Shown one piece after another: positions 39,884 to 58,130 of a stretch of DNA of 64,000 bases (positions within the stretch are counted from its first letter, which is position 1; the number at the start of each line of letters is the position of its first letter). Location of the stretch: the IMG/VR virus record IMGVR_UViG_3300038312_000193; one strand, 5' to 3'. The translations under genes were made by a program, and so were the position numbers. Origin of the DNA: a virus. The notes under the pieces are model-generated. The model ran no database searches, was not told the DNA's origin, and saw only the letters and a program-made list of their open reading frames with translations.

Positions 39884-41254
39884 ATGTTTGACATAAAGAG
39901 TATTAAAGTTGAAGCACAAAATGTAGAAGTTAATTCTGCAATGAAGAAAACTCAACCTAAAAACGAAGGAGTAGAAATATTCTCTGCTATTTGTACTGGT
40001 AAAGATTTAAGTAGATATGGTAAAAAAGTTGATTCAGTTATGGCATATATGACAAATTTAGGACAAAAAGCAGTTGATGGAGATATCCAGGCAAAAGCCG
40101 AAATAAATGCAATTAGAACTCTAATGATTGAAGCACCTTTGGTAAAAAGATTAAATATTTTTGATTTTATGGGTGAAAAAATTAGTGTTGGTTTCGATGA
40201 AGAAGTAAGATTTAAGGTTTATCAACTTCAGGGAACTAAATCTAGTACTCAGGCTAATAGTGGTAGTTTCCCGTTTGCAACTTATAATTGGAGAACCCAA
40301 GTAATGGATGAATTTAAGACTATTACTGGTGGTATTTTAGTTGATTATAGAGAAGTTGCATCTGGTAATACTGATGCTATTAATGTAGCAAACGAGCAAG
40401 TTATTACTGATATGTTAAATCAGATGTTTTATCAGGTATTGGTTGCTTATTACAATGGTATTAAAGGTGCTACTAGTTTGAAAAATTTTGTTGAAGCATC
40501 AGGTATAACTAAATCTGCTCTTGACGCAGTAATTAAGAAAGCACGTAGATTTGGTAATTTAACTATTACTGGTGATTATTCTGTAGTTTCTCAACTTGAA
40601 GATTTTGTTGGATTTACTACTACTACTAATACAGTACAGTTCTCTGAAGCAGTTATGGAAGAAATACGCAAAACTGGTATGCTGAAATTCTATAGAGGTT
40701 TAGGAGTTGTTGAAATTCCTAATACTTATAATTTGACTGAACTTAATAGTGGTGCAGATTTCTTTGAAACTTATCTGCCTGAAGGTTTACTTTTAGTATT
40801 GCCTACTGGTGCAATTAGTCCTTTGAAGATTGGTGTAAAGGGTGGTTTAACTTCATTGTCTGCTACTGATATTAATCTTAAATCAGAAGTCACACGTTTC
40901 GATATGGAATTCGGTAGATTTTGTGCCGCTTAATACAGTAATGTATTAATGATAATCCCTGAAAAAATCTGGAACCCTAAGTCGTAATTTGATATGGGAA
41001 TCAGAGGTGAAGGTTAATTTTCAAAGATTAACCAGCCGCAACGCATACGGATTGAAACTACAATGTAGAATATAATATCCGCAAGAGGCAGGGACATCCC
41101 ATGTGGATGAAAAGATATGCTGAACTTATAGGAAACTATAAGAACTAGAGGATAAAAAACCTTTAGGATAACAAAATTGACAGAATTAATAAAAGAGTAT
41201 ATACCTATGGTTGGGTTAATATCTGATTCAGATTATGCCGTAGATAAAAGATAA
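39884..41254 (+). CDS. major capsid protein, spliced: join(39884..40915,41180..41254), 368 aa
   Basis: position and size; frame restored as ...RFDMEFG|TELIKEYIPMVGLISDSDYAVDKR*. Confidence 0.85.
40916..41179 (+). ncRNA. group I intron, ORF-less, 264 nt
   Basis: exon ends in U; P1 CGGU/GCCG; P10 UUUUGU/ACAGAA; P3 UCCCUG/CAGGGA; P7 GCAUA/UAUGC; P9 hairpins; terminal G. Confidence 0.9.
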
Positions 41255-41275
41255 TTTAATAATGTAATTATTTTT

Positions 41276-41364
41276 AGAGGGATAGGGTAGCTCCCGAAAG
41301 TGTAATCTCCAATACATTTCCCTCTTTAATTATTAATTGGAGTTTATTATATGGAGGTAATAAA
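41276..41364 (+). promoter_or_regulatory. structured endonuclease leader C
   Basis: AGAGGGA/TCCCTCT, GGGTAGCTCCC, loop CTCCAA complementary to TTGGAG (41337) and SD TGGAG (41352). Confidence 0.7.
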
Positions 41365-42468
41365 ATGTCTAAAAAACTTACGTATGAATATGTAAAAAAT
41401 TATATTGAGCAATTTGGATATAAATTAATTAGTATAGAGTATTTAAATGCTCATCAACTTTTAGAAATTGAATGTGATAAAGAGCATAGATATTTCGCAA
41501 AATTTAATAATTTTAAATCAGGTAAAAGATGTCCAGAATGTGCAAAACTTAATAGAGGTAATAATAGAAGATTGTCATTTGAATTTATTAAAAGTGATAT
41601 AGAATCAAATGGAATTTTAAAATTATTATCGGATAATTATAAAAATAATACTACTTTATTAACTATTAGATGTTTACATGGACATGAATTTAATATTAGA
41701 TATTGTGATTTAAAAAGAAACCATATACAATGTCCTATATGTAGGAAAGAACAAATTGCTAAAGATTATGCGTTTACTTATGAAGAAGTTAAAACGTATA
41801 TTGAAAGTCAAGGTTATGTATTATTATCTACAGAATATAAAAACAATACTATCCCATTGTTAGTAAAATGCCCTAATGGTCATATTTACTATGTCAAATA
41901 CAGTAATTTTAGAGATGGTAAAAGGTGTAGGATTTGTTCTATGAAAGAAGCAGGATATAAAAAAAGACTTACTTTTGAACAAGTTAAAAAATATATTGAA
42001 TCTTTTGAAGGATATAAATTATTATCTACTGAGTATAAAATTGCCAGTAGTAAATTATTAATTAAATGTCCAGAAAATCATATATTTGAATGTTCTTTTA
42101 ATAAATTTAGAGATGGTCAAAGATGTCCAATTTGTAAGGAATCTAAAGGTGAACAAAGAGTAAGAGAATATCTTGCCAATAACAATATACCATTTAAAAG
42201 ACAGTATATATTTGAGGATTGTAGAAATATTGAACCATTAAGATTTGATTTTGCGGTGTTTGATTCTGAAAAGAATTTAGTCAAATTAATTGAATATGAT
42301 GGTGAGTTTCATTATTTACCAATAGAAAGCAAGAGTAAATTAAGGTATCAACAAAAATTAGATTCAATCAAAAATAATTATTGTCAAAATAATAATATAA
42401 TATTATTGCGTATCCCCTATTGGGATTTTGATAATATTGAAAATATCTTATTAAAAGAAGTTAGTTAA
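41365..42468 (+). CDS. free-standing repeat-array Vsr/DUF559-like putative homing endonuclease
   Basis: four ~65-aa repeats, then ESKGE, LRFDF, IEYDGEFH, LLRIPYW. Confidence 0.85.
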   Translation: MSKKLTYEYVKNYIEQFGYKLISIEYLNAHQLLEIECDKEHRYFAKFNNFKSGKRCPECAKLNRGNNRRLSFEFIKSDIESNGILKLLSDNYKNNTTLLTIRCLHGHEFNIRYCDLKRNHIQCPICRKEQIAKDYAFTYEEVKTYIESQGYVLLSTEYKNNTIPLLVKCPNGHIYYVKYSNFRDGKRCRICSMKEAGYKKRLTFEQVKKYIESFEGYKLLSTEYKIASSKLLIKCPENHIFECSFNKFRDGQRCPICKESKGEQRVREYLANNNIPFKRQYIFEDCRNIEPLRFDFAVFDSEKNLVKLIEYDGEFHYLPIESKSKLRYQQKLDSIKNNYCQNNNIILLRIPYWDFDNIENILLKEVS

Positions 42469-42505
42469 CAAATTAAATTTTTATGATTAAAAGGAGACTT
42501 ATTTT

Positions 42506-42970
42506 ATGAGTATTAATATGGATACACGTTCATCAATTAAAAATTTATGTCCTTGGGCAGTAAGTTTTAGATTGCCTAATTCAAATGGTGATGTTTATTT
42601 AGAAGCAAATAAAAAAACAACTATTAATAATGGAGAATTAGTTACTTTAATAGAAAATAATAATGTTCTTTTTGTTGGAACTGGAAATGGTAATCATGCT
42701 CGTATTTATGTTGATAACCCTGAAGTACGAGTATATGTTGGTTTTGAGTCAGAAGATGGTAAAGAAAAACAATTTGTTTTAACCGATGAAGAATGCCAAA
42801 AATTATTTGATTACAAAACATTTGGTACTTTTAAAAAACATATAGAAGAAAATGTTGTTGCCAATCATGAGAAACATAAAATAATGGAATATGCAAGAAA
42901 AATTAAACTAAATGACTATGATAAGATCAGTTTTTTAGAAAGTCATTGTGGTATCCCATTTAAGGAATAA
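42506..42970 (+). CDS. head module hypothetical protein
   Basis: AAGGAG RBS; position after capsid gene. Confidence 0.75.
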   Translation: MSINMDTRSSIKNLCPWAVSFRLPNSNGDVYLEANKKTTINNGELVTLIENNNVLFVGTGNGNHARIYVDNPEVRVYVGFESEDGKEKQFVLTDEECQKLFDYKTFGTFKKHIEENVVANHEKHKIMEYARKIKLNDYDKISFLESHCGIPFKE

Positions 42971-42984
42971 GGAGGTTATCACTT

Positions 42985-43410
42985 ATGGGTACACCTCTTC
43001 AAACTTTATATACAAGATTTCAAACAAAAGTAGACGAGGATTTAACTGGAAAAGAATCTTTAATTTTTGCTTTAGTGGATGTTGCTATAAGTAAATCCGA
43101 TAAAACATGTATTCATGGTTTAACTTACGTTTTAACTGATCCAGAAGCAAATCCATTAACTTATGATGGTAATTTTGATGAAAGTTTAAATAATGATGAA
43201 ATAGAATTGCTTTCTTTGTGGATGAAATATGAATGGAAAAATAGAAAAGTATCTAAACTTGAGGCACAAGAAAGAGATATTGGCACTAGTGATTTCAATA
43301 GATTAGAAAATAAAGCAACTTTACTAAAAGAATTACGTTCAGGAGTAAAAGAAGTTTTAGACGAAATAAATTCTTTAAAAAATGATATGAATACTTATCA
43401 ATATAATTAA
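42985..43410 (+). CDS. putative head-tail adaptor
   Basis: MGTP start, L...EIELLSLWM..EW motif, position. Confidence 0.6.
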   Translation: MGTPLQTLYTRFQTKVDEDLTGKESLIFALVDVAISKSDKTCIHGLTYVLTDPEANPLTYDGNFDESLNNDEIELLSLWMKYEWKNRKVSKLEAQERDIGTSDFNRLENKATLLKELRSGVKEVLDEINSLKNDMNTYQYN

Positions 43411-43421
43411 GGGGTGATATT

Positions 43422-43664
43422 TTGAAAGAAAGCATACTTATACAAGTGCCTGTATCTGGTGAAATGACATTATCGGATGTATGTGATAAAGAATGCCGTA
43501 AATTGCGCTCCTTATTATATTTACTTGAAAAAGAATTTAATACAAAAATGATTGAACATTCTGAGATTAGAAAATTTATATTAGATTCATCTAATTTTAT
43601 TCAACGTATTCCAGATATGGTTTCTGAGATTGTAAAGGTTGATGTAAATGGAAATAAAAAATGA
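43422..43664 (+). CDS. hypothetical protein
   Basis: RBS, operon packing. Confidence 0.7.
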   Translation: MKESILIQVPVSGEMTLSDVCDKECRKLRSLLYLLEKEFNTKMIEHSEIRKFILDSSNFIQRIPDMVSEIVKVDVNGNKK

Positions 43665-44832
43665 ATGGATGACTGATTATAGTTATTTTGGAACAGATTA
43701 TCCAAATAACAAATTATTAGATGATGCTAAATATAGATTTGAATTACAAAAACAATCTTTAGAAGGTAAAGATGCTTTAATTGATGGAGTTTCTGAACGT
43801 ATAGTTGCTCAAAATCATACTAATCCTTTAAATCAAGAAAAGTATGATAAGAAATTATGTTTTGATATAAGTAGTAATGTGCATACAGGTTCAATTATTG
43901 AATTTGATAGTAAAACTTATTTAGTTACAAGTCAAATATTTAGTAAACAGGCATATAAAATTGGTAGTGTATTGGAATGTGTAAATACGTTGAATGTTTA
44001 CAAAAACAACACCTCTTACCAAATACCTTGTGTCGTAGAATCTGGAGTAAGAACTTCACAACTAGGCACAGACAAAAACACCTATATTGAAATACCATCA
44101 GGTACTATTACTATGAGATTGCCTAATACTGAAATTACTAGGTTGATTGCTAGGGATGAGGTTTATCAGATAGGATTGCAATCATGGCAGGTCAAAGACA
44201 TTAACGATATTATTGAACCTGGATTATTGGTTTTTAAATTAGAATACAGCCAAGTGGCACAAGAAACTCATGTTTATGGGATTACTATACTAAATGGATT
44301 GTCAATAAGTATTCAGGAAGGTAGTAATCTTCAGTTAAATGTACAGGCCACAGATAATTCAGAAATTGTATCTTCCCCTACACTATCTTATGCTAGTAGT
44401 AATGAATTGATTTGCACTGTTGATTCTAGTGGATTGGTGAGTGCTATTGATGGTGGTAGTTGTGTGGTTAGTGTTAGTTTTAATGGGGTGAGTGCAAGTA
44501 TAGCAATTAATGTGATTGAAGCAGTTCAACATAATATTACAGCAGAAATTAATAGTGGAAGTTCTACAATTGTATTAAATAAAACATCTAATTATACTTG
44601 TGTATTTAAAGATAACGGTGTTGTAGTGCCAGGTACTTCCGTATTTTATTTAACTGCTGACGATGGTACAAGTAATACTACTTTAGCAACAATATCGGTA
44701 CAAGATAGTGCGTTGAATACTTGTACAATAACTGCTGGAAATACTCTTGGATATGTGAAACTTTGGGTAAGAAATGAAAGTGGAAGTATTGTATCTCAAC
44801 CGTTTAGAATACAGATTAAGAATTTGTTTTAA
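43648..44832 (+). CDS. head-closure-like protein with Ig-like (Big_2) domain
   Basis: YASSNELICTVDSSGLVSAIDGGSCVVSV. Confidence 0.7.
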   Translation: MEIKNEWMTDYSYFGTDYPNNKLLDDAKYRFELQKQSLEGKDALIDGVSERIVAQNHTNPLNQEKYDKKLCFDISSNVHTGSIIEFDSKTYLVTSQIFSKQAYKIGSVLECVNTLNVYKNNTSYQIPCVVESGVRTSQLGTDKNTYIEIPSGTITMRLPNTEITRLIARDEVYQIGLQSWQVKDINDIIEPGLLVFKLEYSQVAQETHVYGITILNGLSISIQEGSNLQLNVQATDNSEIVSSPTLSYASSNELICTVDSSGLVSAIDGGSCVVSVSFNGVSASIAINVIEAVQHNITAEINSGSSTIVLNKTSNYTCVFKDNGVVVPGTSVFYLTADDGTSNTTLATISVQDSALNTCTITAGNTLGYVKLWVRNESGSIVSQPFRIQIKNLF

Positions 44833-44846
44833 AGGATGTGTTTTGA

Positions 44847-45347
44847 TTGGAGAAATCATTTAAATTTAAAAATATAGAGAGTAACTTAACTAAACTATTT
44901 ATGTTGATTTATGAAAATCAAAACATCAATAAATATATATACTATTTAAATGATGATCCCCTCTCCTCTCCTGCTGTACCTGTTGACCTTTATGAAAACG
45001 GCAATTTTATCTTAGGTTTTTATGATGGAAGTATACCTACAGAAGAAAAAATAAGATTCTTCCTTAATGTATCATCTGGCAATCTTGCTAAAAATCCAAT
45101 GGATAAAATTGTATATCCTGTCCAAGTTATAATTCCAAGTAGATGGGAAATTCTTCATGGTCGTGGTGAGATAAGAGCAATTAGAATTTTCGATGAAATT
45201 TCACAAATGATAGATCAACAAAAAGTAGCAGGAATGACAGGAGCAGAAGTAATTAACTATAGGGCAGGTAGAATGTCTGGTACAGAATATTCTATATTTT
45301 CTGTTGAAATAGTTATTAAATCTGCAACAACAAAAGGGTTGAGATAA
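44847..45347 (+). CDS. putative tail completion protein
   Basis: position and size. Confidence 0.55.
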   Translation: MEKSFKFKNIESNLTKLFMLIYENQNINKYIYYLNDDPLSSPAVPVDLYENGNFILGFYDGSIPTEEKIRFFLNVSSGNLAKNPMDKIVYPVQVIIPSRWEILHGRGEIRAIRIFDEISQMIDQQKVAGMTGAEVINYRAGRMSGTEYSIFSVEIVIKSATTKGLR

Positions 45348-46078
45348 TGGATAATACTAAATATATTTTTGCTCAACCTGATTATATAGAAGGAATTGGG
45401 AACATATATCCTATTAAATTAAAGGATTATGATAAATTTCAAGAATGTTCAAAGTTATTATATATATCTAAAGGTAATTTTATTGAATGTGATGATGTTC
45501 CTTTATTGGCCTTAATATTTATTTATTTTGAACAATTAGGTTTAACTGAAGAAGAATTAGTTACTTCTTTAGAAAACTTGTTTTCATTAGTTTTAAAAGA
45601 AACAGTTAAATTAAAAACTGATGAGAAAACAATTTGGTTTGAGATAAATAATAATGATAATATAATTAATTTTAATAATTATGATGTTTTGCGGTCAGTA
45701 ATTATGAAACAAAATTTAATGCATGAACCTAAGATTTATAAAACAAAACTTATGAATCAATGGGCAGAAAAAGCATTAAAAGCAAAACAAAAAAATGCTC
45801 CTAATATTACCTTAGAAGATATTGTTTCAACCGTATCTGTTGGGTGTCATAAGCATTATTGGGATTTAGAAAATTATACAATTTATCAACTTTATTCTGA
45901 TTTTTATAGATTAAGAAAAACAATTGAATATGATACAAGCATACAATTCCAATGTGTAAGTACGAAAGACTTAAAAATACAAGATTATGCTGAAAGTTTA
46001 GACTTATTTCATAATCCATATGATGATTTATTTGTAAGTTCAGATAAATTAAGTGGACTAAATAAAGCAATAAAATAA
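45347..46078 (+). CDS. tail module hypothetical protein
   Basis: IYPIKL, VIMKQN, YTIYQL motifs; coupled to upstream gene. Confidence 0.7.
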   Translation: MDNTKYIFAQPDYIEGIGNIYPIKLKDYDKFQECSKLLYISKGNFIECDDVPLLALIFIYFEQLGLTEEELVTSLENLFSLVLKETVKLKTDEKTIWFEINNNDNIINFNNYDVLRSVIMKQNLMHEPKIYKTKLMNQWAEKALKAKQKNAPNITLEDIVSTVSVGCHKHYWDLENYTIYQLYSDFYRLRKTIEYDTSIQFQCVSTKDLKIQDYAESLDLFHNPYDDLFVSSDKLSGLNKAIK

Positions 46079-46093
46079 AGGAGGAAATTATTT

Positions 46094-46861
46094 ATGGGTA
46101 AAAAACTTGTCTGTGATGTATTTGACGCAGTAATGATTGATAATACAGATGGTTCCGTAGCAGGTACTACTACATTACAAAGTGCAAATATTGATGTAGT
46201 GGTAAATGAAGTAGAGGTTAGGGCTGGTAAAGGTAATGCATTACAAGCTACTCTTCATGTTCAACGTGATATAAACGTTGATCTAACTGATATCGAGTGG
46301 AAACCCGAATGGGTTGCTAAACAGTTAGGTACTACTATTACTACTGGTGCAGGAGAAGCTTATGCTATGCCTAAATGGTATGAAGCAGTAGATTTAGATG
46401 GGGAAGAAGTAGGAACAGCTATTGGTTTTAATCTTGATGAAACCCCTCTTACAACTGATAGTGGATTAAAAATATATGATGAAGATGGCACAGAAGTTGT
46501 TGTAACAACTGGTTATACTATTACCGGAAAAGCAGTTACAATTGTTGGTGGAGTTGCTGGCGATATGTATGAAGTAAGAACATATAAATATGCTACTCCT
46601 GCTACTACACAAACATTAACATTTGAATCTGATAAATTCGCTAAAGGTGTAACACTTGCATTGTCTACATTTGAAACAGATGAAAATGAAACACATCCAT
46701 TTGAATTACAGTACCAATTTCCTTCAGCCATACCTAATGGTAGTTTCCAGATTAATACTTCGTCTGAGAAAAATGCTTCAACACAGAATTTAAAATTGAA
46801 AATTGTTAAACCCGCAACCACAACCGTTGTTGGTAAGTTACTTAGAATACCACTTCAATAA
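46094..46861 (+). CDS. major tail (tube) protein
   Basis: EVRAGKGN motif, Thr/Gly-rich, position. Confidence 0.75.
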   Translation: MGKKLVCDVFDAVMIDNTDGSVAGTTTLQSANIDVVVNEVEVRAGKGNALQATLHVQRDINVDLTDIEWKPEWVAKQLGTTITTGAGEAYAMPKWYEAVDLDGEEVGTAIGFNLDETPLTTDSGLKIYDEDGTEVVVTTGYTITGKAVTIVGGVAGDMYEVRTYKYATPATTQTLTFESDKFAKGVTLALSTFETDENETHPFELQYQFPSAIPNGSFQINTSSEKNASTQNLKLKIVKPATTTVVGKLLRIPLQ

Positions 46862-46874
46862 TTTTATTAATATA

Positions 46875-46972
46875 AAAGATAGATTAAATTAGACCAATTT
46901 AATTAATAAGGACGATTCAGGAAAATCGTCCTTATTTTATTTTATTCAGGAATATCTACAGGAGGATAAATA
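46875..46972 (+). promoter_or_regulatory. structured endonuclease leader D (second loop apparently inverted)
   Basis: two hairpins; downstream TTCAGGAA and SD CAGGAGG. Confidence 0.65.
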
Positions 46973-48280
46973 TTGAAAAAATTAACATATGAAGAGGTAA
47001 AACAATATTTTGAATTATATGATTATACATTAATTTCAACTGAATATATAAATAGTTCTAAGAAATTATTAACATTTTGTCCTTGTGGTCATAAATATGA
47101 AGTTTCATACAATAAATTTTCACAGGGTAAACGATGTACGATATGTCAAGGAATTAAAAGATATACTTATGAAGAAGTGAAAGATATTTTTAAAGATAAT
47201 GGATGTGAATTATTATCTACAGAATATATAAACAATCATATTCCATTAAAATATAAATGTTCTTGTGGGAATTATAGTGAAATACGTTTATATAATTTTT
47301 TAATTGGCGAACGATGTAAATTATGTGGAATGCAAAAAACTAAAGACAAACAAAAACATAGTTATGATTATGTAAAAGATAGATATGAAAATAAAAAATA
47401 TATATTATTATCTGATAAATATAATAATTACCATGAACCTTTAGAATGTATATGCCCTAATGGACATCATATAGAAAAAAGTTTGGCTTCATTAGATTTT
47501 GGTTATGATTGTTATATTTGTGCTGATCAAAATTTAAGGTTAGATTATACATATTTAAAATCATATTATGCTAGTTGTGGTTGTGAATTATTAACTACTG
47601 AAGAAGAATATTGTGGAGTTGGACATAATAATTCACTTGAATTTAGGTGTTCATGTGGTAATATAACTCAAAATAGTTTTTATAATTTTAAAAACGGTGA
47701 AAGATGTTGGGAATGTGCAAAGAATAAAAAGGTTCAAACTAATTTAATTAAATATGGTGTAGAACATACTTTATCTGATAATGAGGTTTGGTTAAAAACA
47801 AGAAAAACTTTATATAAGAATGGCAATGTTCCAAGTTCAACCCAACAAGATTATCTTTATAAAATATTTGGCGGAGAGTTAAATTATTTAGTTGAAAATA
47901 TTAATGTAGATATATTATTAGATAATTTAATCATTATTGAATATGATGGATCGGGTCATGATTTAAGTGTTAAATATTGTAGTATAACACAAGAACAATT
48001 TAATAAAAAAGAGATAAGAAGAAGTTATTTTTTAAAAAATAAAGGTTATAAAATAATTCGTATCATTTCAACCAAAGATAAACTTCCCTTAGATGATACC
48101 TTACTTTTAATGTTAGATTATGCTAAAGAGTATTTATCTACAAATCATTCGTGGATTCATTTTGATATAGATAATCAAAAAATAATAACATCTCAATATA
48201 TAATTAATGTTGATTATGGTAAATTACGTAAAATCAAAAGTAAAGATATTGAAGATTATAAACAATACGTAAGTTTATAA
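46973..48280 (+). CDS. free-standing repeat-array Vsr/DUF559-like (EDxHD-type) endonuclease
   Basis: four C.CGH/N...RC..C repeats; NVDI, IIEYDGSGHD, GYKIIRI. Confidence 0.85.
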   Translation: MKKLTYEEVKQYFELYDYTLISTEYINSSKKLLTFCPCGHKYEVSYNKFSQGKRCTICQGIKRYTYEEVKDIFKDNGCELLSTEYINNHIPLKYKCSCGNYSEIRLYNFLIGERCKLCGMQKTKDKQKHSYDYVKDRYENKKYILLSDKYNNYHEPLECICPNGHHIEKSLASLDFGYDCYICADQNLRLDYTYLKSYYASCGCELLTTEEEYCGVGHNNSLEFRCSCGNITQNSFYNFKNGERCWECAKNKKVQTNLIKYGVEHTLSDNEVWLKTRKTLYKNGNVPSSTQQDYLYKIFGGELNYLVENINVDILLDNLIIIEYDGSGHDLSVKYCSITQEQFNKKEIRRSYFLKNKGYKIIRIISTKDKLPLDDTLLLMLDYAKEYLSTNHSWIHFDIDNQKIITSQYIINVDYGKLRKIKSKDIEDYKQYVSL

Positions 48281-48464
48281 TTTAAATAATCAATATAAAT
48301 ATCATAGGCAGGTATTTTGTGTCTGCCTTAAATATTTATATATTTTTTTAACATAACAATACAAAATCGACGTTTTATGCAAATTTTAGATGCTAGAAAT
48401 GCCTAGAAATGGGCATTTATTTTTTTGTGTATTTTTAGATTTTAGTGAGAATTTATAAATTGGA

Positions 48465-48905
48465 GTGATTTTTATTTCAGAACTCAAATTAATTATTGAT
48501 AATAATGTTTTGGAAAAATACAATCAATATTATTTTACAAAGTATCCAAAACGTAAAAAAGTTCCTATTGATAAACCTACTCACCCATCTATAAATAAAT
48601 GGATGATTATGAAAAGACCTCAAATGAACGATTTAAAACAGAAAATAAAAGAATTCATCATATGGTTTGTAGAAGAAAATGGTTTAACTAATAAGAAACT
48701 TGAAAAGTGTGAAATGACTTTTATTAGTTACTTCAAAACCAAAATTCGCAAAGATTGTGATAACACTGTTCCTAAATTTTATTTAGATGGTTTATCAGAA
48801 TCAGGATTAATTATTGATGATGACTCATTACATTTAACAAGTCTTACTTTAAAATGTGGATATGATAAAGAGTGGCCTAGAACGGAGATACATATAAATT
48901 ATTAA
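48465..48905 (+). CDS. rusA: RusA-family Holliday junction resolvase
   Basis: RKDCDN..K...DGL...IIDDD. Confidence 0.8.
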   Translation: MIFISELKLIIDNNVLEKYNQYYFTKYPKRKKVPIDKPTHPSINKWMIMKRPQMNDLKQKIKEFIIWFVEENGLTNKKLEKCEMTFISYFKTKIRKDCDNTVPKFYLDGLSESGLIIDDDSLHLTSLTLKCGYDKEWPRTEIHINY

Positions 48906-48927
48906 TATAATTGGAGGTAAATATATT

Positions 48928-49467
48928 ATGTTTATTTCAGAAATTAAAGATGATGAAGGTTTATACAACGGTAAAACTTTTGAAGTTAAATCCCATATAT
49001 CATTTATAGAAAAGAAAATTTTATGTGAACAGATAATAGATAGTTGTTTAGTTGCAGATGAAAACAATATGGTTAGTTGCGATTTCTTCATGAAATATTT
49101 ATTAACAAATATGAAAATAGTTGCTTTATTTACAGATTTGGAGTTTGGAGAAGAATCTGTGCAAGAGTATGATTTTCTAAACGAGAATGAGTTAATGGAT
49201 TATATTTTGAATCGGATTGATGATTGTGAGATAAGTTTTATAAATGAAATGATTAATAAAGAAATTGAGCAGAGAATACGGATGGGGAATAGCATTGAGT
49301 CAATTATTGCTAGTAGATTGGATAAATTGATTGATAAGGTACCAGACCAAAAATCCATAAAGAAAATTCTTAATGACATTCCAAAATCCGTGAATAAAAT
49401 CAAACCTGAAAATCTTGAAATTATAAAAGGGATTTTGAATAAGCAAGGTGATGGTGTTGGCAAGTAA
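48928..49467 (+). CDS. tail-module hypothetical protein (possible chaperone)
   Basis: GGAGG RBS; position. Confidence 0.7.
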   Translation: MFISEIKDDEGLYNGKTFEVKSHISFIEKKILCEQIIDSCLVADENNMVSCDFFMKYLLTNMKIVALFTDLEFGEESVQEYDFLNENELMDYILNRIDDCEISFINEMINKEIEQRIRMGNSIESIIASRLDKLIDKVPDQKSIKKILNDIPKSVNKIKPENLEIIKGILNKQGDGVGK

Positions 49468-49942
49468 GAGTTTTAAAAGTTTAAGTCAACTTGAACAATA
49501 TATCCAATCTCAAGCAGATAAGGTTCTTGTTACTCATGTTGGTGAAGTAATCAAAGATGAATTAGAATCCAGTGCAATTGAGATGTTAAATGAATATGAA
49601 CCATCGGTTTATGATAGAAGAAGTTCTAGTAATTCATTAGATAGTGGAGGTATTGCAGATAAAAACACTATGTCTTCTGAATTAATTTCAAGTGGAGTAT
49701 TGATTGTAACACCAAAAGCAGAAAGAAATATGGATTTTAGTAAGTACCCAGGATGGGGTTATGATACAAATAAATCACTCGCAGAGAATTTAATTGAGGG
49801 ATATGGAAATCGTCAATATCCCTGGAATCAACCAAGAGATTTTATTGAAGATACAAGAGAGAATCTTAGAAAAAATAAAAATCATGTAGAGGCTATGCGT
49901 GATGGTTTAGAAGAGATTTTTGGGAAAGGTAATGTGATTTAA
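49457..49942 (+). CDS. HK97 gp10-like tail-module protein (tentative)
   Basis: YEPSVYDRR, IEGYG, PRDFIEDT motifs. Confidence 0.6.
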   Translation: MASKSFKSLSQLEQYIQSQADKVLVTHVGEVIKDELESSAIEMLNEYEPSVYDRRSSSNSLDSGGIADKNTMSSELISSGVLIVTPKAERNMDFSKYPGWGYDTNKSLAENLIEGYGNRQYPWNQPRDFIEDTRENLRKNKNHVEAMRDGLEEIFGKGNVI

Positions 49943-49975
49943 CAAAATAGTGGTTTTGTGATAATGACGCAGTTT

Positions 49976-50010
49976 AAAGTAGGGATATTTTATATATTCC
50001 CTACTTTTTG
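49976..50010 (+). terminator. intrinsic terminator
   Basis: AAAGTAGGGA/TCCCTACTTTTT. Confidence 0.65.
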
Positions 50011-50062
50011 ATTTTGAAAATAATTTCATTGATATAGATAAATATATTGAGGATGTGAATAA

Positions 50063-50272
50063 ATGCCTAGAAAAATATTTCGTCAAACAATTACAAGTCC
50101 TGAATTATGGGAAAAAGTTAATCCTAAAAATATATCTTTAATGCAAAGGTTTCTTAAAGAAAAGAATACAAGATGCTCTAATCTTACAGTAGAGGGATAT
50201 GATTCAGATTTACGCATATTCTTCACTTGGAATTTAATATACAATGAAAATAAATATTTCCTTGGGATATAA
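50063..50272 (+). pseudogene. truncated tyrosine recombinase (N-terminal fragment)
   Basis: FL......S..T..GY.SDL..FF.W integrase N-terminal pattern; no catalytic domain follows. Confidence 0.65.
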
Positions 50273-50402
50273 AAAATAAAATTTTAGATGAAATTTTTAA
50301 TCCATACTTAAGTAATAAAATTAATATCGCTTAAATTAACCGATCTTCCCCTTGTGTTAGTTATTTACATATGTTAAAATTAACACAAGGAGGTTGATAT
50401 GT

Positions 50403-50762
50403 ATGGCTTCTGGTGATATTATAGCAGGTGATTTTCCTGAGAAATCATTTATAATCAGTGTGTTTGGTAATATATCAATACAGTGTAGTACAATTAAAAA
50501 TCCATCATTTAAATATGATATTACTAAAAGTATAAAAAATATTGAAATTATTACTGAAGAAACAAAGAAAAAATTTTTAGGTGCTGCTGGCTGGGGTACA
50601 GTTGGAGCAATTGCTCTCGGCCCTTTAGGTGCGATTGCTGGAATATTAGTTGGAGGTAATAAGAAAGAAATATTGATTGCATGTGAATTAAAAAACGGTA
50701 AAAAGTTTATTGCTACAGTTGATAATAAATTGTATAAGAATATGTTAAAAGTTAGTTATTAG
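50403..50762 (+). CDS. moron-like small protein with Gly/Ala-rich membrane segment
   Basis: GAAGWGTVGAIALGPLGAIAGILVGG; own promoter TTGTGT-17-TAAAAT; terminator 50811-50838. Confidence 0.75.
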   Translation: MASGDIIAGDFPEKSFIISVFGNISIQCSTIKNPSFKYDITKSIKNIEIITEETKKKFLGAAGWGTVGAIALGPLGAIAGILVGGNKKEILIACELKNGKKFIATVDNKLYKNMLKVSY

Positions 50763-50872
50763 TATATTATTTATAAATATTTAAAAATTTAATATCTTAA
50801 AATTCATCAGAAGTGGGATATATCCACTTCTTTTTTTGTTGTCTATTTTTAAAAGAAAGGAAGTGGATATAT

Positions 50873-53800
50873 GTGAGTGATGATATTGTAATCCGAATAA
50901 AAACTTTATTAGATAAAGCAACTCCAGCAGATATTAATAAAGTAAAATCAGATATTGAACAACGAGTTAATCCTAAAATAAAAGTAGATGTTGATAGTAA
51001 AGGTTTAGATAAATATAAAGAAAAATATGTACAAATTGAAAATGCTGAAGCAAAAATTACTGAAAAAACTAAGGAATGGACAAAAACTAATGGTGAAATA
51101 GTAAAGCAAATTGATAATATAAAAGCTGGGACAAATGAGGTTACTAGAAGAGTTACAGAAACCACTACTAATTATAAGAAACAACGCGCAGAATTAGAAA
51201 AAATTAATGCAGAACAGTCTAAATATTGGTCACAAAGAGTTAAAGAAACTGTAGGTGATATGACAAAGAAACCAGATGAACTGGTTAAAATGGCTGAATA
51301 TTATGAGAATCTTGAAAAAACCAATTTAGAAACTATTAAAAATGCACAAAACAAAAACTTTAATGAAGCTAAAGATCATTTGACACAGTTAAGTAGATTA
51401 AGAAAAGAATATCATAGTTTAGATAATAAAAATACTGAACAAGCAAAAGAATTAACTAAGCAAATATCTTATCACCAAGGACAATATAATAATATTATTA
51501 GAAGAAAAATTGATATTGGTGAAAAAACAAAAATCGAAGGAATAGAAGCAGAGAAATTAAATCAACTTGAAAAAGTTAGAGAACAAACATTACGTAATAT
51601 TAATAATATAAAAGCAATAAATACAGATAAGAGTAATGCACAACAGCAAAAACAAGTTGATGATTTTAACAAAAGAAATATAAATGCTATTGATTATCAG
51701 ATACAACAAAGACAAATAGAATCACAACAATTTTCTAAAGCATTACAAGCAAAAATGCTACAAGAAGTTGAAGAAAAGAAAATAACATCAGAATTACAAA
51801 AGCAAAATATTGCACAAGAAAAAATGCTTAATACTATACGTGGTATGCGTGGTATAAACGGAGCATTTATTGTTGGTGATAATTTAAAAGATTTAAATAA
51901 CTTAGAAAATAAAATTAAAGGTTTTAATCCATCTGATAAAGATTTTGTTCAAAATATGCGTAATGCTCAGTTAGAACTTCAAAGAATAAATACATCAATG
52001 GGTATTTATAAAAAAGAGGTTCAAGATGCAAGTAAGTTTACAAATGTTTTTGGTCAGAGCATATTTGAAGCAGGTAAGAAATTTGCGTCCTGGCTGGTCA
52101 TTGGAAATACCATCATGGGAGCCATTAGAGTAATTCGGGATGGAATTCAATTTGTAATAGACCTTGACAATGCTATGAATCAGTTGCGGATAGTAATGAA
52201 TTTGACTAGTGATCAAGCAATTGAATTAGGTAGGAATTATAATTCTCTCGCAAAAGAAATGAGTGTAACAACTACAGAGATTGCTAAAGCAGCAGTTGAA
52301 TTTGCAAGACAAGGTTTATCCTTAAGTGAGATGGATGATAGACTTCGTAATACTATAAAATACGCTAAGATTTCAGGAATGGAGTTCCAAGAAGCAGCAG
52401 AGATAATTACTGCTAGTGTCAATAGTATGGGTGTGGGAACACAAAGAGCAATTGATATATTTAGTTATATGGGTAAACAACATTGCCCCCTTGTAGCGTG
52501 AGTTACAAGTGAAAATTTGGCTATAACGGTGAAACTCCTGAGAAGGACAATACCGTGGGAAGACTATTTGTGATTAGTAATAATCGTACAACCATATAAA
52601 TCAGGGGTGATTATATGGTTGAATATATATGTGATTATTGTGGTAAAACAGCAAAGAAAAGACCAAGTTATATTAAAGAACATAATTTTTGTTGTAGAGA
52701 ATGTTATCATAAATATCAAAGTGAATTTTTAAGAGGAGAAAATAATAAAAATTCTAAACCAAAGAATATATATTATTGTGCTAATTGTGGCAAAGAAGTG
52801 CCAATGCTTAAAAGTCAAGCAAAAAATAGGAAAAATATATTTTGTTCTAAACAATGTAGATTTGAATATGATAGTAAAGTATTTAAAGGCGAAGGAAATC
52901 CAAATTATCGGAGAGGTAATATTGAAATACAATGTATATATTGTGGTAAAAAGTTTAAACGTCCAGCTTGGGAAGAAGGTAGAGCAAAATATTGTAGTAA
53001 AGAATGTAAGAATAAATATTGGAGTGAAGTATTAAGTAAAACACCAGAAAATCAAAAACGTCTTAAACAACAAGGTGTAAATACTAAATTAAAACAAAGA
53101 AATAAATTTACTAAACCTGAGTTAATTGTGTATGAATATTTTAATAATATAAATGTAGAGTGTATTCCGCAATATCCTATGTGTAATAGATTTGTTGTGG
53201 ATTTTTTTATACCTTCTTTTAATATAGTTGTTGAAGTATTAGGAGATTATTGGCATGGCAATCCTTCAAAATATCCAGAGGACAAATTAACAGAAAAACA
53301 ATTAAAGACAAAAATTAAAGATGAATTTAAATTGAATTATCTTTCAAAAGAGGGATATGAAGTACATATGATTTGGGAAGATGATATTTATAAACGATTA
53401 GAGAATACTATGAAATTTATTAAATGTAAATTATAAATATGGTTGTATATTATTATTTAATCACAAATAGAACCCGTAACGACTACGTATCATAATAGTA
53501 ATATTATGGTCACGCCAAACATCTATAATACCCCTTTATAGATGAAGATAGAGTCTGATCTACACGTATAATCTAAAAACGAAGGTGTAGAAGTAGGAAG
53601 AAATTCCTACTCGCCATAATTAGTTTTATGGTCAGTAAGCGAAAGCTGAAAGTAACAGTTTGGATGCAACCGCGACTGGAGCCGATGAAATTGGTAGATT
53701 TTGCCGTTTAATATAGAAATATATTAAATTATTAGTACGGAATTAAGCAAGGAGGCTGAGATGCTAACTTGAACCGAAGGCTAAATGTAAAAATTTAGTC

Positions 53801-56800
53801 AGGGGCAGAGCATAGAGAGTGAAACTGTTTATTTTAACAGAATATAATCTCTCCAAGAGTCCGTACCACCTGACCAGATTATGCTGAAGGTGAAAACATA
53901 TGCCGAACTTACAAGAAATGAATTGTAAGAACTAGATGATAAAAAACTTCTAGGATAACATAATTGAGAGCCCTTCAACGCGTCGGTGGAACCGCTGGTG
54001 CGCTTAACGTAAACTTTGAAAAACTATCTTCATGGATAGCTATTATTTCCTCTCGTACAAGAGAATCCGCAGAATCTATAGGTAATAGTATGAAAACTAT
54101 TCTTGCACGTATGCAAAATATGGTTGAACGTGGATATGATGAAGAAAGTGGTGACAAAGTAAATAATGTAGCAAAAGCTTTAGCATCAATTAATGTTCAA
54201 CTTATGGATTCAGAAGGACAGTTTCGCAATCTAGGGACAGTAATGGATGAAGTTGGTAGTAAATGGGATTCTTTGGATTCTAGACAAAAAAGTTATGTAG
54301 CTACTGCAATGGCGGGAGTTCGCCAACAAAGTAGATTTTTAAACCTCATGGAAGGTTATGCTGACTCCGTAGAATTATATGAAGAATCCCTTAATGCTGC
54401 TGGGACAGCCAATGAAAAATTCGGAATCTGGCAAGAAAGTTCTCAAGCTAAATTAGAAAAATTTAAAGCAACACTCCAAACTATATATCAAACTTCTTTT
54501 GACACGGGAACAATAAAAGATATTATTAATTTTGGAACAAAATTACTTGATGTAATTAGTGATTTGCAAGAAAGTGGAATTGGGTTAAAAGAAGTAATAA
54601 TTGCTCTTACTACTGTATTTTTTATTTTCAATAATACAGCATTAAATAATTTTTATAATTCAATAGTAAATGCTCCTGCTAATATCATGAAATTAATAGC
54701 GTCATTAAATGGTTTAAATATTGCTATGAAAGCAACTACTATTTCTACTAATTTATTAAAAATAGCAATATCTACTTTTATACCATTTGCAATTATTACA
54801 GGTATTACCTATTTAATTCAAAAACTATATGAATTAAAAAATGCTAAAAAAGAAGTCCAAGAAACATTTTCAAATTCTCTTTCAACAATTCGAACTAATG
54901 AATCTGAAATTAAAAAAGCAAAAGAATTACAAACAGAGTATGATAAATTAAAAAATAAAACTAGTTTAACTAGTGATGAAAAAGAAAGATTGAAAAATGT
55001 TCAAAATGAATTAGTTAAAACATTTCCAAATTTACGATATCAACTAGATGCCGAGGGAAATGCGTTAATTGATAATACTCAAGCAATTTCAGATAATATT
55101 AAAGCTAGAGAAGATGAAGTAAATAGGTTAAAGGAAAATCTTGCTAAAGATTTTGAGATTTCTGGCAATGCTTATCGTGAAGATTTAAAAGTTAAACAAA
55201 AAGCATTAGAAGAAGAAAAAGCCTTTAGAGATCAACAATTAGAATTTATTAAAAATGCCGAAAATTCCGATATGTCGAAAGGCGCAAAACAAAGATATTT
55301 AAAATCTCTAAATACAGCATTACAAGAATCTTCTGCTAGAATGACAAAATTAAGTCCAGAAGTTGAAGAATTATCTAAGAAAATAGATTCTTTAGCATTA
55401 TCATATTTGCAAGCAAGTGATAAGTTTAAAGAGTTTGATACAACTACTTTATATAGTATTATTGACTTATTTAATACCCTATCTGGGAAAAATCCTAAAT
55501 TAGACTTTTTTAATTTTATTGATAAGATTGATACTAGTAAATTAAATGATTTTCAAAATGCTTTAAATGTTTTTAAAAACTCAAATCAAACCAATAGTGA
55601 TATAAAAACATTAAATAATTCTTATCAACAACTTTATAATCATTTAGTTGATATAGCACATCAAGGCAAAACTACTAAACAAGAAGCTGAAAATTTAGCA
55701 CAAGGTTTTTTAAAAACTATTGCTCCCGTAGAATCAGCACAAGTATCTTTATCTAAATTTCAATCTGCTATCCAAACTGTTGCTTCTGCTACTACAAAAT
55801 CAACTAAAAGTATTATTTCTGCTTTTGGAATTTTAGGCATTAGCATCAATAAAGAAGTTGCAAATATTTTATCAGGATATATGGGGTTAGTAGCAGGAAT
55901 ACAATCTGTTGCAGATGCTCATAATGTTATAGCAAAAATTGCTAATGATGTTACTGAGGGTGGAAAAACTACTGGTATGGCAGATACATCTTATAAAACT
56001 AGTTTAGTAACCACTCCTTTAATTAATTTAGGTAAATATTATGATGAATTAAAGAAATTACAAAAATCTATCAATAATAATCCTAGTGGTGGTGGTGGAG
56101 TAGGTGGCGGTTCCAAAGATAAATCTTCTTCATCATCTCAAGCAGCCGAAAAGGAGCTTTACGAATCAAAAGAGTATTCCAATGCCTTATCTGAAATAGA
56201 TAAACAACTCTCCATCTTAAACGCAGAAAAAGAAAAACTTGATAAAACATCCACTCAATATCAAGATAGTCTCAGAAAAGAAATCACCCTACTCCAGAAA
56301 AAACAAGACCTCGCTCACGCAGAAGCAGATTCCCTTCGCAAACGTAAAAATGATAAACTTTGGGAAATAAATCAAATAGCAGGAGCAGATTACTTTTCCC
56401 TCTCAGACACTAAACGTCAATCTATATTTGATTCTTTATATAATCCAAAGAAAAATGAAAAGCAAAAATACTTCAATGATCTGCTTAAAGATTTTGATGA
56501 TTTATCTAAACGTATTGATGATTGTCAAGCGTCTTATAGGGATTGGCAAGAAACTATAGATTCACTTAATTATGAAGTTGTAACAACTACAATTGAAAAA
56601 TTTGATGAAAATATTAATATATTTAAAGAGGATTTAGATTCTGTACAATCAGATTTAGAAAAATTGACTTATGGTACAGATGATTATAATTTTAAATTTA
56701 AAGAGCAAGTAGACTTAAATGAAAAATATATTCAAGAATTGCGCAATAAACAAAGTTATCTTCAACAACAAATTGCTAAAACTCAAGATTATAGTCTTGC

Positions 56801-58130
56801 TCAAGAAGAATTAAATACTAAACTGCGTGAAACTAATAGATTGTTGAAACAAGCACAAGAAGATGCTTATTATAGTATTGTTGCAGATATAAAACGTGAA
56901 GAACAAGAAAGATTAGATAGTTTAGAAAGACAATTAAAACGCCAAAAAGAAATTGCAGAAGCTAAAATCGAATCCTATCAATCTCAAATTGATGCACTTG
57001 AAGAAAAAGCTGAAAAAGAAGATATAATTGCAGAACGCCAAGAAAGACAATTAGAACTTCAGAAACTTCAACTTGAACTTCAAAAAGTACTTGATAACCG
57101 TGATGTTCAAATTCTGAAAAAGCAAGAAGATGGAAGTTGGCAATATGCCTATATAGCCGACCCTGATAAAATTGAAGAATTAAATAATGAAATTATAGAC
57201 AAACAAAAAGATTTCAGTGATTGGGAATTAAAGAATATTAGAGATGCTGAAAAGAAACAATTACAAGCATTAATTGATGGTGAAAATAAAAAGATCGATG
57301 CTCTGGAAGATTCTTTTAATGAACAGCAAGAAAATTTTAATACATTTTTTAATATGTTAGAGAATTCTTCTATAGAAAATCTTGATAATTTAAACACTAC
57401 TTTGGGTAATAAATGGGAAGAAATTTTACAAACTATAAAATCTAAAGTAGAAGCTATTTTAGCACAACAAGCTCGAATTAGTGGTTTGAGTTATGGAGGT
57501 ACTAGCGGAGGAAGTGGCGGCGGTAGTGATGTTAATGATGGATATACTATTTGGACAGGTTCAGATGGTAAAACTTATATAACTGCATCAGATTCAACTC
57601 ATGGGACTATAACAGAAGAATATCATGGAAGTAATTCGCCGGGTTCATATAATAATAATGGTACACCAAGAAGTAGTTCTTCTTCTTCAAGTTCTTCTAG
57701 TTCTTCGACAAGTAGTAATCAATATAAATATTTATCTAATCTTGCTAAGAATGGTGATTCTGGTCAAAAAGCATGGGCAAATGATCAGATAAAGAAAAAG
57801 AAATATGCTGATGGTGGAGAAACTGAGAAAACTGGTTTACATTGGTTAGATGGAGAACTTGGTAAACCAGAAAGAGTTTTGACGGTAGAGCAGACTAAAG
57901 GTTTTAATAAATTAGTTGATAATCTTCCTAATTTATTAAATAAAGTAGATTTATTAAAAAATATAACAAGTAATATTAGTTTGCCTGATTTTAATAATTT
58001 AGTGGGTAGAAGTCAATCTACAAACAATACAATTCATATTGATAAACTCGAATTTCCAAATATCACAAACCCTGAAGGTTTACAACAAGCAATACTTGAC
58101 CTTCCGAGGTTGGCATTACAGTATAAATAA
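50873..58130 (+). CDS. tape measure protein, spliced: join(50873..52474,53663..53695,53967..58130), about 1932 aa
   Basis: TP901-type TMP domain restored: DIFSYMG|DATATGADEIG|RALQRVGG. Confidence 0.9.
52475..53662 (+). mobile_element. group I intron with endonuclease ORF, 1188 nt
   Basis: P1 GGGU/GCCC, P3 UUUGGC/GCCAAA, R GUAACGACUA, S GAAGAUAGAGUC, terminal G. Confidence 0.9.
52615..53436 (+). CDS. intron-encoded zinc-finger/Vsr-like homing endonuclease
   Basis: three C..CGK...FCS..C repeats; TKPE, VVDF, EVLGDYWHG, IWEDDI. Confidence 0.85.
   Translation: MVEYICDYCGKTAKKRPSYIKEHNFCCRECYHKYQSEFLRGENNKNSKPKNIYYCANCGKEVPMLKSQAKNRKNIFCSKQCRFEYDSKVFKGEGNPNYRRGNIEIQCIYCGKKFKRPAWEEGRAKYCSKECKNKYWSEVLSKTPENQKRLKQQGVNTKLKQRNKFTKPELIVYEYFNNINVECIPQYPMCNRFVVDFFIPSFNIVVEVLGDYWHGNPSKYPEDKLTEKQLKTKIKDEFKLNYLSKEGYEVHMIWEDDIYKRLENTMKFIKCKL
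53696..53966 (+). ncRNA. group I intron, ORF-less, 271 nt
   Basis: P1 UGGU/GCCG, P3 GUACGGA/UCCGUAC, P7 GCAUA/UAUGC, terminal G; related to capsid intron. Confidence 0.9.

Follow-up and report, generated by a model that had tools for sequence, protein, structure and literature searches.

The window analysed here is a 64,000-nucleotide (nt) stretch of viral DNA (IMG/VR record IMGVR_UViG_3300038312_000193) with a G+C content of 27.6%, and it carries late genes that belong to a large siphovirus-like phage. The genes for the major capsid protein and the tape measure protein (TMP) in this window are interrupted by two related elements on the plus strand, which are group I introns without an open reading frame (ORF). 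Intron i1 occupies 264 nt at 40916–41179 in the capsid gene, and intron i2 occupies 271 nt at 53696–53966 in the TMP gene; both were matched by a hidden Markov model (HMM) of the intron family, with E values of 3.6e-53 and 5.6e-56, respectively. An earlier note on this DNA had taken the two for sister introns that arose by ectopic transposition. Our comparison instead points to two separate members of one large phage family, probably with cores of different sublineages.

The exon structure of the capsid gene was evident from uninterrupted homologues. Exon 1 (39884–40915, plus strand, 344 codons) was delimited from the ORF list and ends in ...RFDMEFG with a final GGT codon. The capsid-region DNA showed 67% nucleotide identity to SPbeta-group phages, and the match of exon 1, to a hypothetical gene of that group at the same 67%, ended exactly at 40915. 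The ORF as listed (39884–40933) stops soon after ...RFDMEFG, and the frame resumes at 41180 for the 24 codons of exon 2 (41180–41254, plus strand; TELIKEYIPMVGLISDSDYAVDKR in translation, then a stop), which align with the SPbetaL3 C-terminus (...GLIRDENFEITPE). The SPbetaL3 capsid homologue, which has no interruption, reads ...RFDMEIG-AGVAKGQEYQIGLIRDENFEITPE across the site and matches the joined window product ...RFDMEFG-TELIKEYIPMVGLISDSDYAVDKR. Additionally, an intron-less capsid allele was found in a contig of run X11, from an independent landfill metagenome, which joins 40916 to 41183 with CT between, reads GGT ACT GAA and is exactly 264 nt shorter. The i1 junction is thus fixed by the uninterrupted homologue and by this allele, which is without precisely those 264 nt.

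The TMP of the window was closest to that of Psychrobacillus phage Perkons (51.7% amino-acid identity). The Perkons TMP is uninterrupted across the i2 site, as the SPbetaL3 capsid is across that of i1, and reads in one piece ...DVFSYLG DATATGADEIG VAFQKVGG, which fixes three exons in the window, all on the plus strand. Exon 1 (50813–52474) ends in ...DIFSYMG with GGT, a 33-nt micro-exon (53663–53695) encodes DATATGADEIG and matches Perkons residue for residue, and exon 3 (53967–58130) starts with RALQRVGG.... The Pfam PhageMin_Tail match is split between exon 1 (profile positions 3–87) and exon 3 (positions 99–201), and the micro-exon supplies the 11 missing positions (88–98).

Between exon 1 and the micro-exon lies a further group I intron, iA, of 1188 nt (52475–53662, plus strand), whose junctions were taken from the Perkons TMP. 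It carries an endonuclease-like ORF (52615–53436) with a weak Pfam match to REase_MTES_1575, under the curated cutoff. The 5' part of iA is a distant member of the family (HMM match at 52476–52574, E=2.7e-5), and the same HMM left its 3' half unmatched. Inspection of that half by eye (53437–53662) suggested that its P7 differs (GACTA...) and that its tail, GTAACAGTTTG, resembles the GATAACAAAATTG of the family; judging from these letters, iA may itself be a mosaic. All three introns are inserted after a GGT codon in phase 0, and the two in the TMP gene, both with donors ending in GGT in phase 0, are 33 nt apart. Joining 52474 to 53967 would remove the 11 residues DATATGADEIG in frame, and by analogy exon skipping is conceivable here; it was reportedly seen in the original report on orf142 of phage Twort. 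Among the contig joins listed for related runs, no intron-less TMP allele was seen; one contig of run X6 ends at 52473, and its 69 unplaced letters correspond in length to the micro-exon plus 36 nt.

The 5' and 3' end strings that the earlier note had quoted for both introns were all present, as were the other shared features that it had listed. In particular, the GCATA/TATGC P7 was located at 41043–47/41116–20 in i1 and at 53810–14/53899–903 in i2, and the GAAACT...AGAATATAAT module was found in both. The remaining helices of i1 are P2 (40930–40949), P3 (40956–61/41089–94), P4–P6 (40968–41033), P7.1/7.2 (41048–41081), P8 (41095–41109), P9 (41126–41141) and P9.1 (41145–41166), with the terminal omega G at 41179. 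Those of i2 are P2 (53707–53728), P3 (53735–41/53860–66), P4–P6 (53748–53800), P7.1/7.2 (53815–53853), P8 (53867–53892), P9 (53909–53928) and P9.1 (53932–53953), with the omega G at 53966. As had been noted, P3, P5, P6 and P8 differ between the introns with pairing kept: P3 is TCCCTG/CAGGGA in i1 and GTACGGA/TCCGTAC in i2, and the same holds for P4/P5.

The guide sequences of the two introns fit their own exons, in agreement with the note. In P1, the 5' exon CGGU (40912–15) pairs with the internal guide sequence GCCG (40925–28) of i1, and UGGU (53692–95) pairs with the GCCG (53703–06) of i2. The targets are similar, GGT/ACAG for i1 and GGT/AGAG for i2 (slash, insertion point). In P10, UUUUGU (40919–24) of i1 forms 6 bp with ACAGAA of the capsid exon, and UUUU (53699–702) of i2 forms 4 bp, two of them wobbles, with AGAG of the TMP exon. 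Cross combinations of guide and 3' exon, read from the sequence, pair worse, and the two-base GU difference between the guides answers the AC of the capsid exon. A family member in an unrelated gene, L067_500, has nearly the same arrangement, with an AUGU-GCCG guide and the target GGT/ACAU.

The group I fold was examined on an alignment (A3) of 73 family members, on which the i1 helices and the P7 pseudoknot were imposed (12 helices, 60 pairs). In this alignment, 86.8% of cells were paired, compared with 60% in shuffles and 35–44% when the partner strand was slid, and none of 500 shuffles scored as high. As many as 54 of the 60 pairs change on both sides, including those of the P3/P7 pseudoknot, and the support for the fold is far above chance. 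P7 and P7.1 were 100% paired across the 73 members, and all five pairs of P7.1 (helix 7) vary on both sides. Pairing stood at 98.6% in the base of the inner stem (helix 8) and at only 44% in the apex of P7.2 (helix 9), a low value because the loop region aligns poorly. RNAalifold, run on four members, likewise gave P2, a long-range P3, P4, P5, P6, a hairpin between P7 and P3', P8, P9 and P9.1, with 34 of 57 pairs compensatory. Subgroup IA is recognised by such a hairpin, P7.1/P7.2, placed between P7 and P3'. On this structure, i1 and i2 are classed as genuine ORF-less group I introns of IA (IA2-like) architecture with P7.1/P7.2. Searches of Rfam, including Intron_gpI (RF00028), returned no match for either intron at the gathering score or at E values up to 10, which bears on the covariance model and not on the fold; i1 and i2 belong to the same ribozyme class as RF00028 by fold, without a sequence-model match.

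Searches by motif, nhmmer profile and blastn revealed that this intron family is large and widespread. At least 111 viral contigs match the family motif, and a profile built from four members gave 129 HMM hits in the retrieved viral loci; by blastn against phage records, 90 match i1 and 39 match i2. The same motif occurs in at least 120 stretches of bacterial and archaeal genomes, of which 16 are family members by HMM, mostly in Bacillota and also in Nostoc and Microcoleus; the others were rejected by the family HMM as chance matches to an AT-rich pattern. The family-bearing phages have hosts in Staphylococcus, Bacillus, Clostridium, Clostridioides, Streptococcus, Listeria and Enterocloster, and Aeromonas jumbo phages are also among them. 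The interrupted genes are mutually unrelated and include those for capsid, TMP, portal, terminase, RNA polymerase beta, RecD helicase, gyrA-like, AAA_24 and ribonucleotide reductase (RNR)-like proteins, the RNR-like gene being our reading of the motif ...NPCG/EQPL. A tblastn comparison of the window capsid and TMP exons with all retrieved loci yielded no relative occupying either insertion site, and the sole match was a distant TMP in L010.

As evident from the alignment, several features are near-universal in the family: the GATAAAAA(G/A)C loop, the GATAACA tail, the GAATATAAT module and a P7 of GCRTA/TAYGC. The guide tetramer GCCG was found in 29 of 73 members and its first three letters, GCC, in 43 of 73, and the exon end GGT in 18 of the 36 members for which a 4-bp P1 was found. 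Most of the end sequence shared by i1 and i2 is thus the signature of the family (P9.1 loop and tail, GCC(G) guide, GGU site, AU-rich P2), and a GGT target with a GCCG guide is the commonest state. A LAGLIDADG-type ORF was observed directly 5' of the conserved core at L088:100-1107, L087:3467-4555 (minus strand) and L091:3-494, apparently in the 5' part of the intron; these loci are the closest core relatives of i1 and one near relative of i2.

To place i1 and i2 within this family, we compared their overall and regional identities. The two introns are 65% identical in a global alignment and about 67–69% identical in family alignments of 73–86 members (66.7% with 73). Their mutual ranks were 5 and 8 of 72, and 4 and 5 of 85 after 13 genome members were added. 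Pairwise re-alignment by region, with partner ranks out of 85, revealed a marked difference between the ends and the core. In the 5' 40 nt, the partners ranked 1 and 2 at 74% identity, a level at which unrelated members also stand (72–78%), and in the 3' 72 nt they ranked 20 and 7 at 82%. In contrast, the ranks were 73 and 70 in P3–P6 (52% identity) and 58 and 81 in P7–P8 (58%). The best core relatives of each intron reach 73–85% in other phages and genes, and the closer core relatives of the two sit in gyrA-like, RNR, RNA polymerase and terminase genes. The 3' 72 nt of i1 are also 92–93% identical to those of L084, L088 and L087, compared with 82% to i2.

The phylogenetic trees were consistent with these ranks. 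In the all-column tree, i1 grouped with L091 (support 100/94, starred), and starred branches, which set off one group of 38 rows (96/87) and one of 42 rows (95/89), parted i1 from i2. In the core tree, i1 grouped with L091 and with L088 of the gyrA-like gene (100/97 and 99/98, both starred), and i2 was nearest, with weak support (83/43), to L002, the RNA polymerase intron of Aeromonas phage ZPAH34. Forcing an i1+i2 clade on the core cost 64.5 log-likelihood units and was rejected by the approximately unbiased (AU) test (p=0.027). The structural alignment and phylogeny, which covered 73–86 members, thus revealed that i1 and i2 are not reciprocal nearest relatives, and the claim that they are sisters is not supported, given their closer core relatives elsewhere, their mutual ranks of 4–8, the grouping of i1 with L091 and the AU result for the core. 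Since the cores belong to different lineages, the differences in P3, P5, P6 and P8 are differences of lineage and not drift after a recent copy; and as the cores are divergent where the ends are alike, i1 and i2 are probably not a recent donor and recipient.

We therefore favour, as the probable explanation, that i1 and i2 are genuine group I introns and separate members of one large phage family, that their cores come from different sublineages rather than from a donor-recipient pair within this genome, and that the likeness of their ends reflects modular exchange or convergence. Besides Bacillota phages, among which it circulates, the family is also found in cyanobacterial genomes and in jumbo phages of Aeromonas. 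From the fold, each intron is expected to be spliced out of the transcript in the usual two steps, started by guanosine, and this would restore the 24-residue capsid C-terminus and the TMP reading frame. The extra end likeness would stem from gene conversion, from core replacement between co-resident or co-infecting members, or from convergence on similar targets, and not from kinship of the whole elements. Several points weigh against this explanation. The overall identity of i1 and i2 lies at the 93rd percentile of family pairs, and the identity of their ends (76%) reaches the 99th percentile when non-co-resident pairs of matched G+C content are taken as the control. When an i1+i2 clade was forced on all columns, the cost was 43.8 and 55.5 units (AU p=0.116 and 0.083), so that it was disfavoured and not rejected; on the ends alone (P1–P2 and P7' to tail) such a clade fitted equally well as the unconstrained tree (p=0.58), in a partition too short for rejecting either topology. 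Triplet comparisons, with partners picked after the core tree was known, grouped each intron with its window partner by the ends but with outside relatives by the core (for example, 32:8 versus 12:40, Fisher p=6e-8); the p values ranged from 0.049 (i1 versus L084) to 6e-8, most being at or below 1e-3. Some shared history of the ends is thus possible. Additionally, the motif used to sample the family was taken from i1 and i2 themselves, the counts from both motif scans are lower bounds, and the self-splicing of both introns is predicted from their fold.

The two introns could have arisen by copying within the window genome, with reverse splicing into a GGU/A site as one conceivable route, followed by guide adaptation and compensatory drift in P3, P5, P6 and P8. 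The common family and genome, the similar targets, the guides that each suit their own 3' exon, the partner ranks of 1 and 2 in the 5' 40 nt and the survival of the sister topology on all columns and on the ends would suit such an origin. However, the cores rank near the bottom of the family in mutual identity and have outside relatives at 73–85%, the clade is rejected on the core, and starred branches part the two introns; the GGT target with a GCCG guide is the state that occurs most often in the family, and the signature expected of a copy, a core better kept than P1, is reversed here. We regard such a within-genome copy as very unlikely. The proposal of ectopic spread with guide adaptation accordingly stands at the level of the family, where many unrelated genes are interrupted and guides fit their own exons, and falls as a donor-recipient event within this genome. 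Recombination at the DNA level fits the window data equally well as an RNA route. Trans-splicing between capsid and TMP transcripts, which had been raised together with it, is pure conjecture; the sole RNA run with window DNA, X20, contributed three short contigs, all inside exons.

A mosaic in which the ends are truly of shared ancestry, either as a within-genome duplicate with a core later replaced or as two arrivals homogenised in P1–P2 and the P9 tail by gene conversion, is another possible origin. It draws on their 99th-percentile identity, on the triplet counts that change sides between ends and core, and on co-resident pairs at eight loci, whose ends are more alike than those of other pairs (median 67% versus 56.5%, Mann-Whitney U test p=0.0009), with an unclear effect in the core (p=0.09). 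It also draws on a contig of run X3, which appears from its matches to be a variant of the TMP intron in which the P9 hairpin differs and the 3' end is i1-like: i2 continues up to 53911 and, after 14 other letters, the i1 tail follows from 41138. This mosaic is nevertheless unlikely in our view. The end identity is only 74–82%, unrelated members do equally well (L067_500 with 72% and L024 with 78% in the 5' part, and 92–93% to the i1 tail), and the ends-only data did not reject the core-based clades (p=0.19–0.55); the triplet partners were selected after the core tree, and the co-resident pairs number only eight and are not phylogenetically independent. Family membership alone, with convergence of the ends under similar targets that constrain P1/P10, an AU-rich genome and shared tertiary-contact motifs, would agree with the commonest guide and target state, with the low G+C content of the window and with L067_500 of an unrelated gene, whose guide is almost that of i1, whose target is GGT/ACA and which is the best end match of i1 (82%). 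It is highly improbable as the whole explanation, as the 99th percentile persists in the GC-matched control and the co-resident trend extends over several loci. Modular exchange between co-resident introns is a possibility at which this trend hints. A broader version, in which the guide, P2 and P9 tail of co-resident members evolve in concert across the family by gene conversion or core replacement on co-infection while cores are exchanged independently, with the window introns as one example, is put forward as a speculative and rather unlikely extension.

Two family members lying within a few kb of each other were also observed on each of seven other viral contigs (L096, L006, L047, L067, L080, L005 and L010). 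In L067, L096, L047 and L006, the two members are among each other's eight closest of 72 and never nearest relatives; in L005, L010 and L080, their mutual ranks range from 17 to 63.

Group I introns of Staphylococcus phage Twort are known from orf142 and nrdE, and the crystallised Twort ribozyme is of class IA2. The window introns resemble the Twort introns in that several occur in one phage genome, in the IA class with P7.1/P7.2 and in their close spacing within one gene. However, they form another sequence family of the same class, with a P7 of GCAUA/UAUGC, and the family profile gave only marginal nhmmer matches in the whole Twort genome (E=0.04 and 0.11). A parallel in gene context is provided by the tape measure introns of Bacillus cereus group prophages, TMP-IVS1, IVS2, IVS3a and IVS3b (Tourasse and Kolsto 2008, PMC2504315), which are likewise of class IA and lie several to a phage tape measure gene; further introns there interrupt terminase and tail tube genes. 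TMP-IVS1 and IVS2 are 80% identical overall and 90–92% identical in the core, with a changed P1, and the same study had already described related introns whose P1 and P10 are adapted to the separate sites that they occupy, as well as some unlike introns in which the periphery is more conserved than the core (54–62% core identity). Compared by this published description, i1 and i2 differ from the true sisters IVS1 and IVS2 in that they diverge in the core and sit in two different genes. For group I introns of ribosomal DNA, reverse splicing has been proposed as a route of ectopic spread (review PMC3984707). As in those, related introns stand here at different sites and a target needs 4–6 nt of guide complementarity, and the window family is found mostly after GGU.

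Some variation was also present around the introns in related contigs. Just 3' of the capsid gene, the window carries a putative free-standing nuclease gene (41365–42468, plus strand) with zinc-finger DUF4379/CapR and DUF2726-like domains in Pfam. In the region 41255–42478, run X3 keeps i1 and is without the nuclease gene, 41254 being joined to 42479 with 56 other letters between; run X11 is without both i1 and the nuclease gene. The capsid intron and the nuclease gene are therefore independent insertions. Contigs of both runs also show a length variant of TMP exon 1, in which about 355–360 nt within 51304–51665 are replaced by 22–27 other letters. By its matches in sequencing runs, the window DNA belongs to fermentation metagenomes.

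With the present case, another phage joins those whose late structural genes contain group I introns, a kind described since at least 2008. Its usefulness lies in the clear junctions, in the natural intron-less capsid allele and in the placement of both introns in a large, defined family missed by Rfam, for which alignment A3, taken with its structure, might serve as the seed of a covariance model. Concerted evolution of the intron ends, if true, would be of wider interest, as it bears on the movement and persistence of ORF-less introns.

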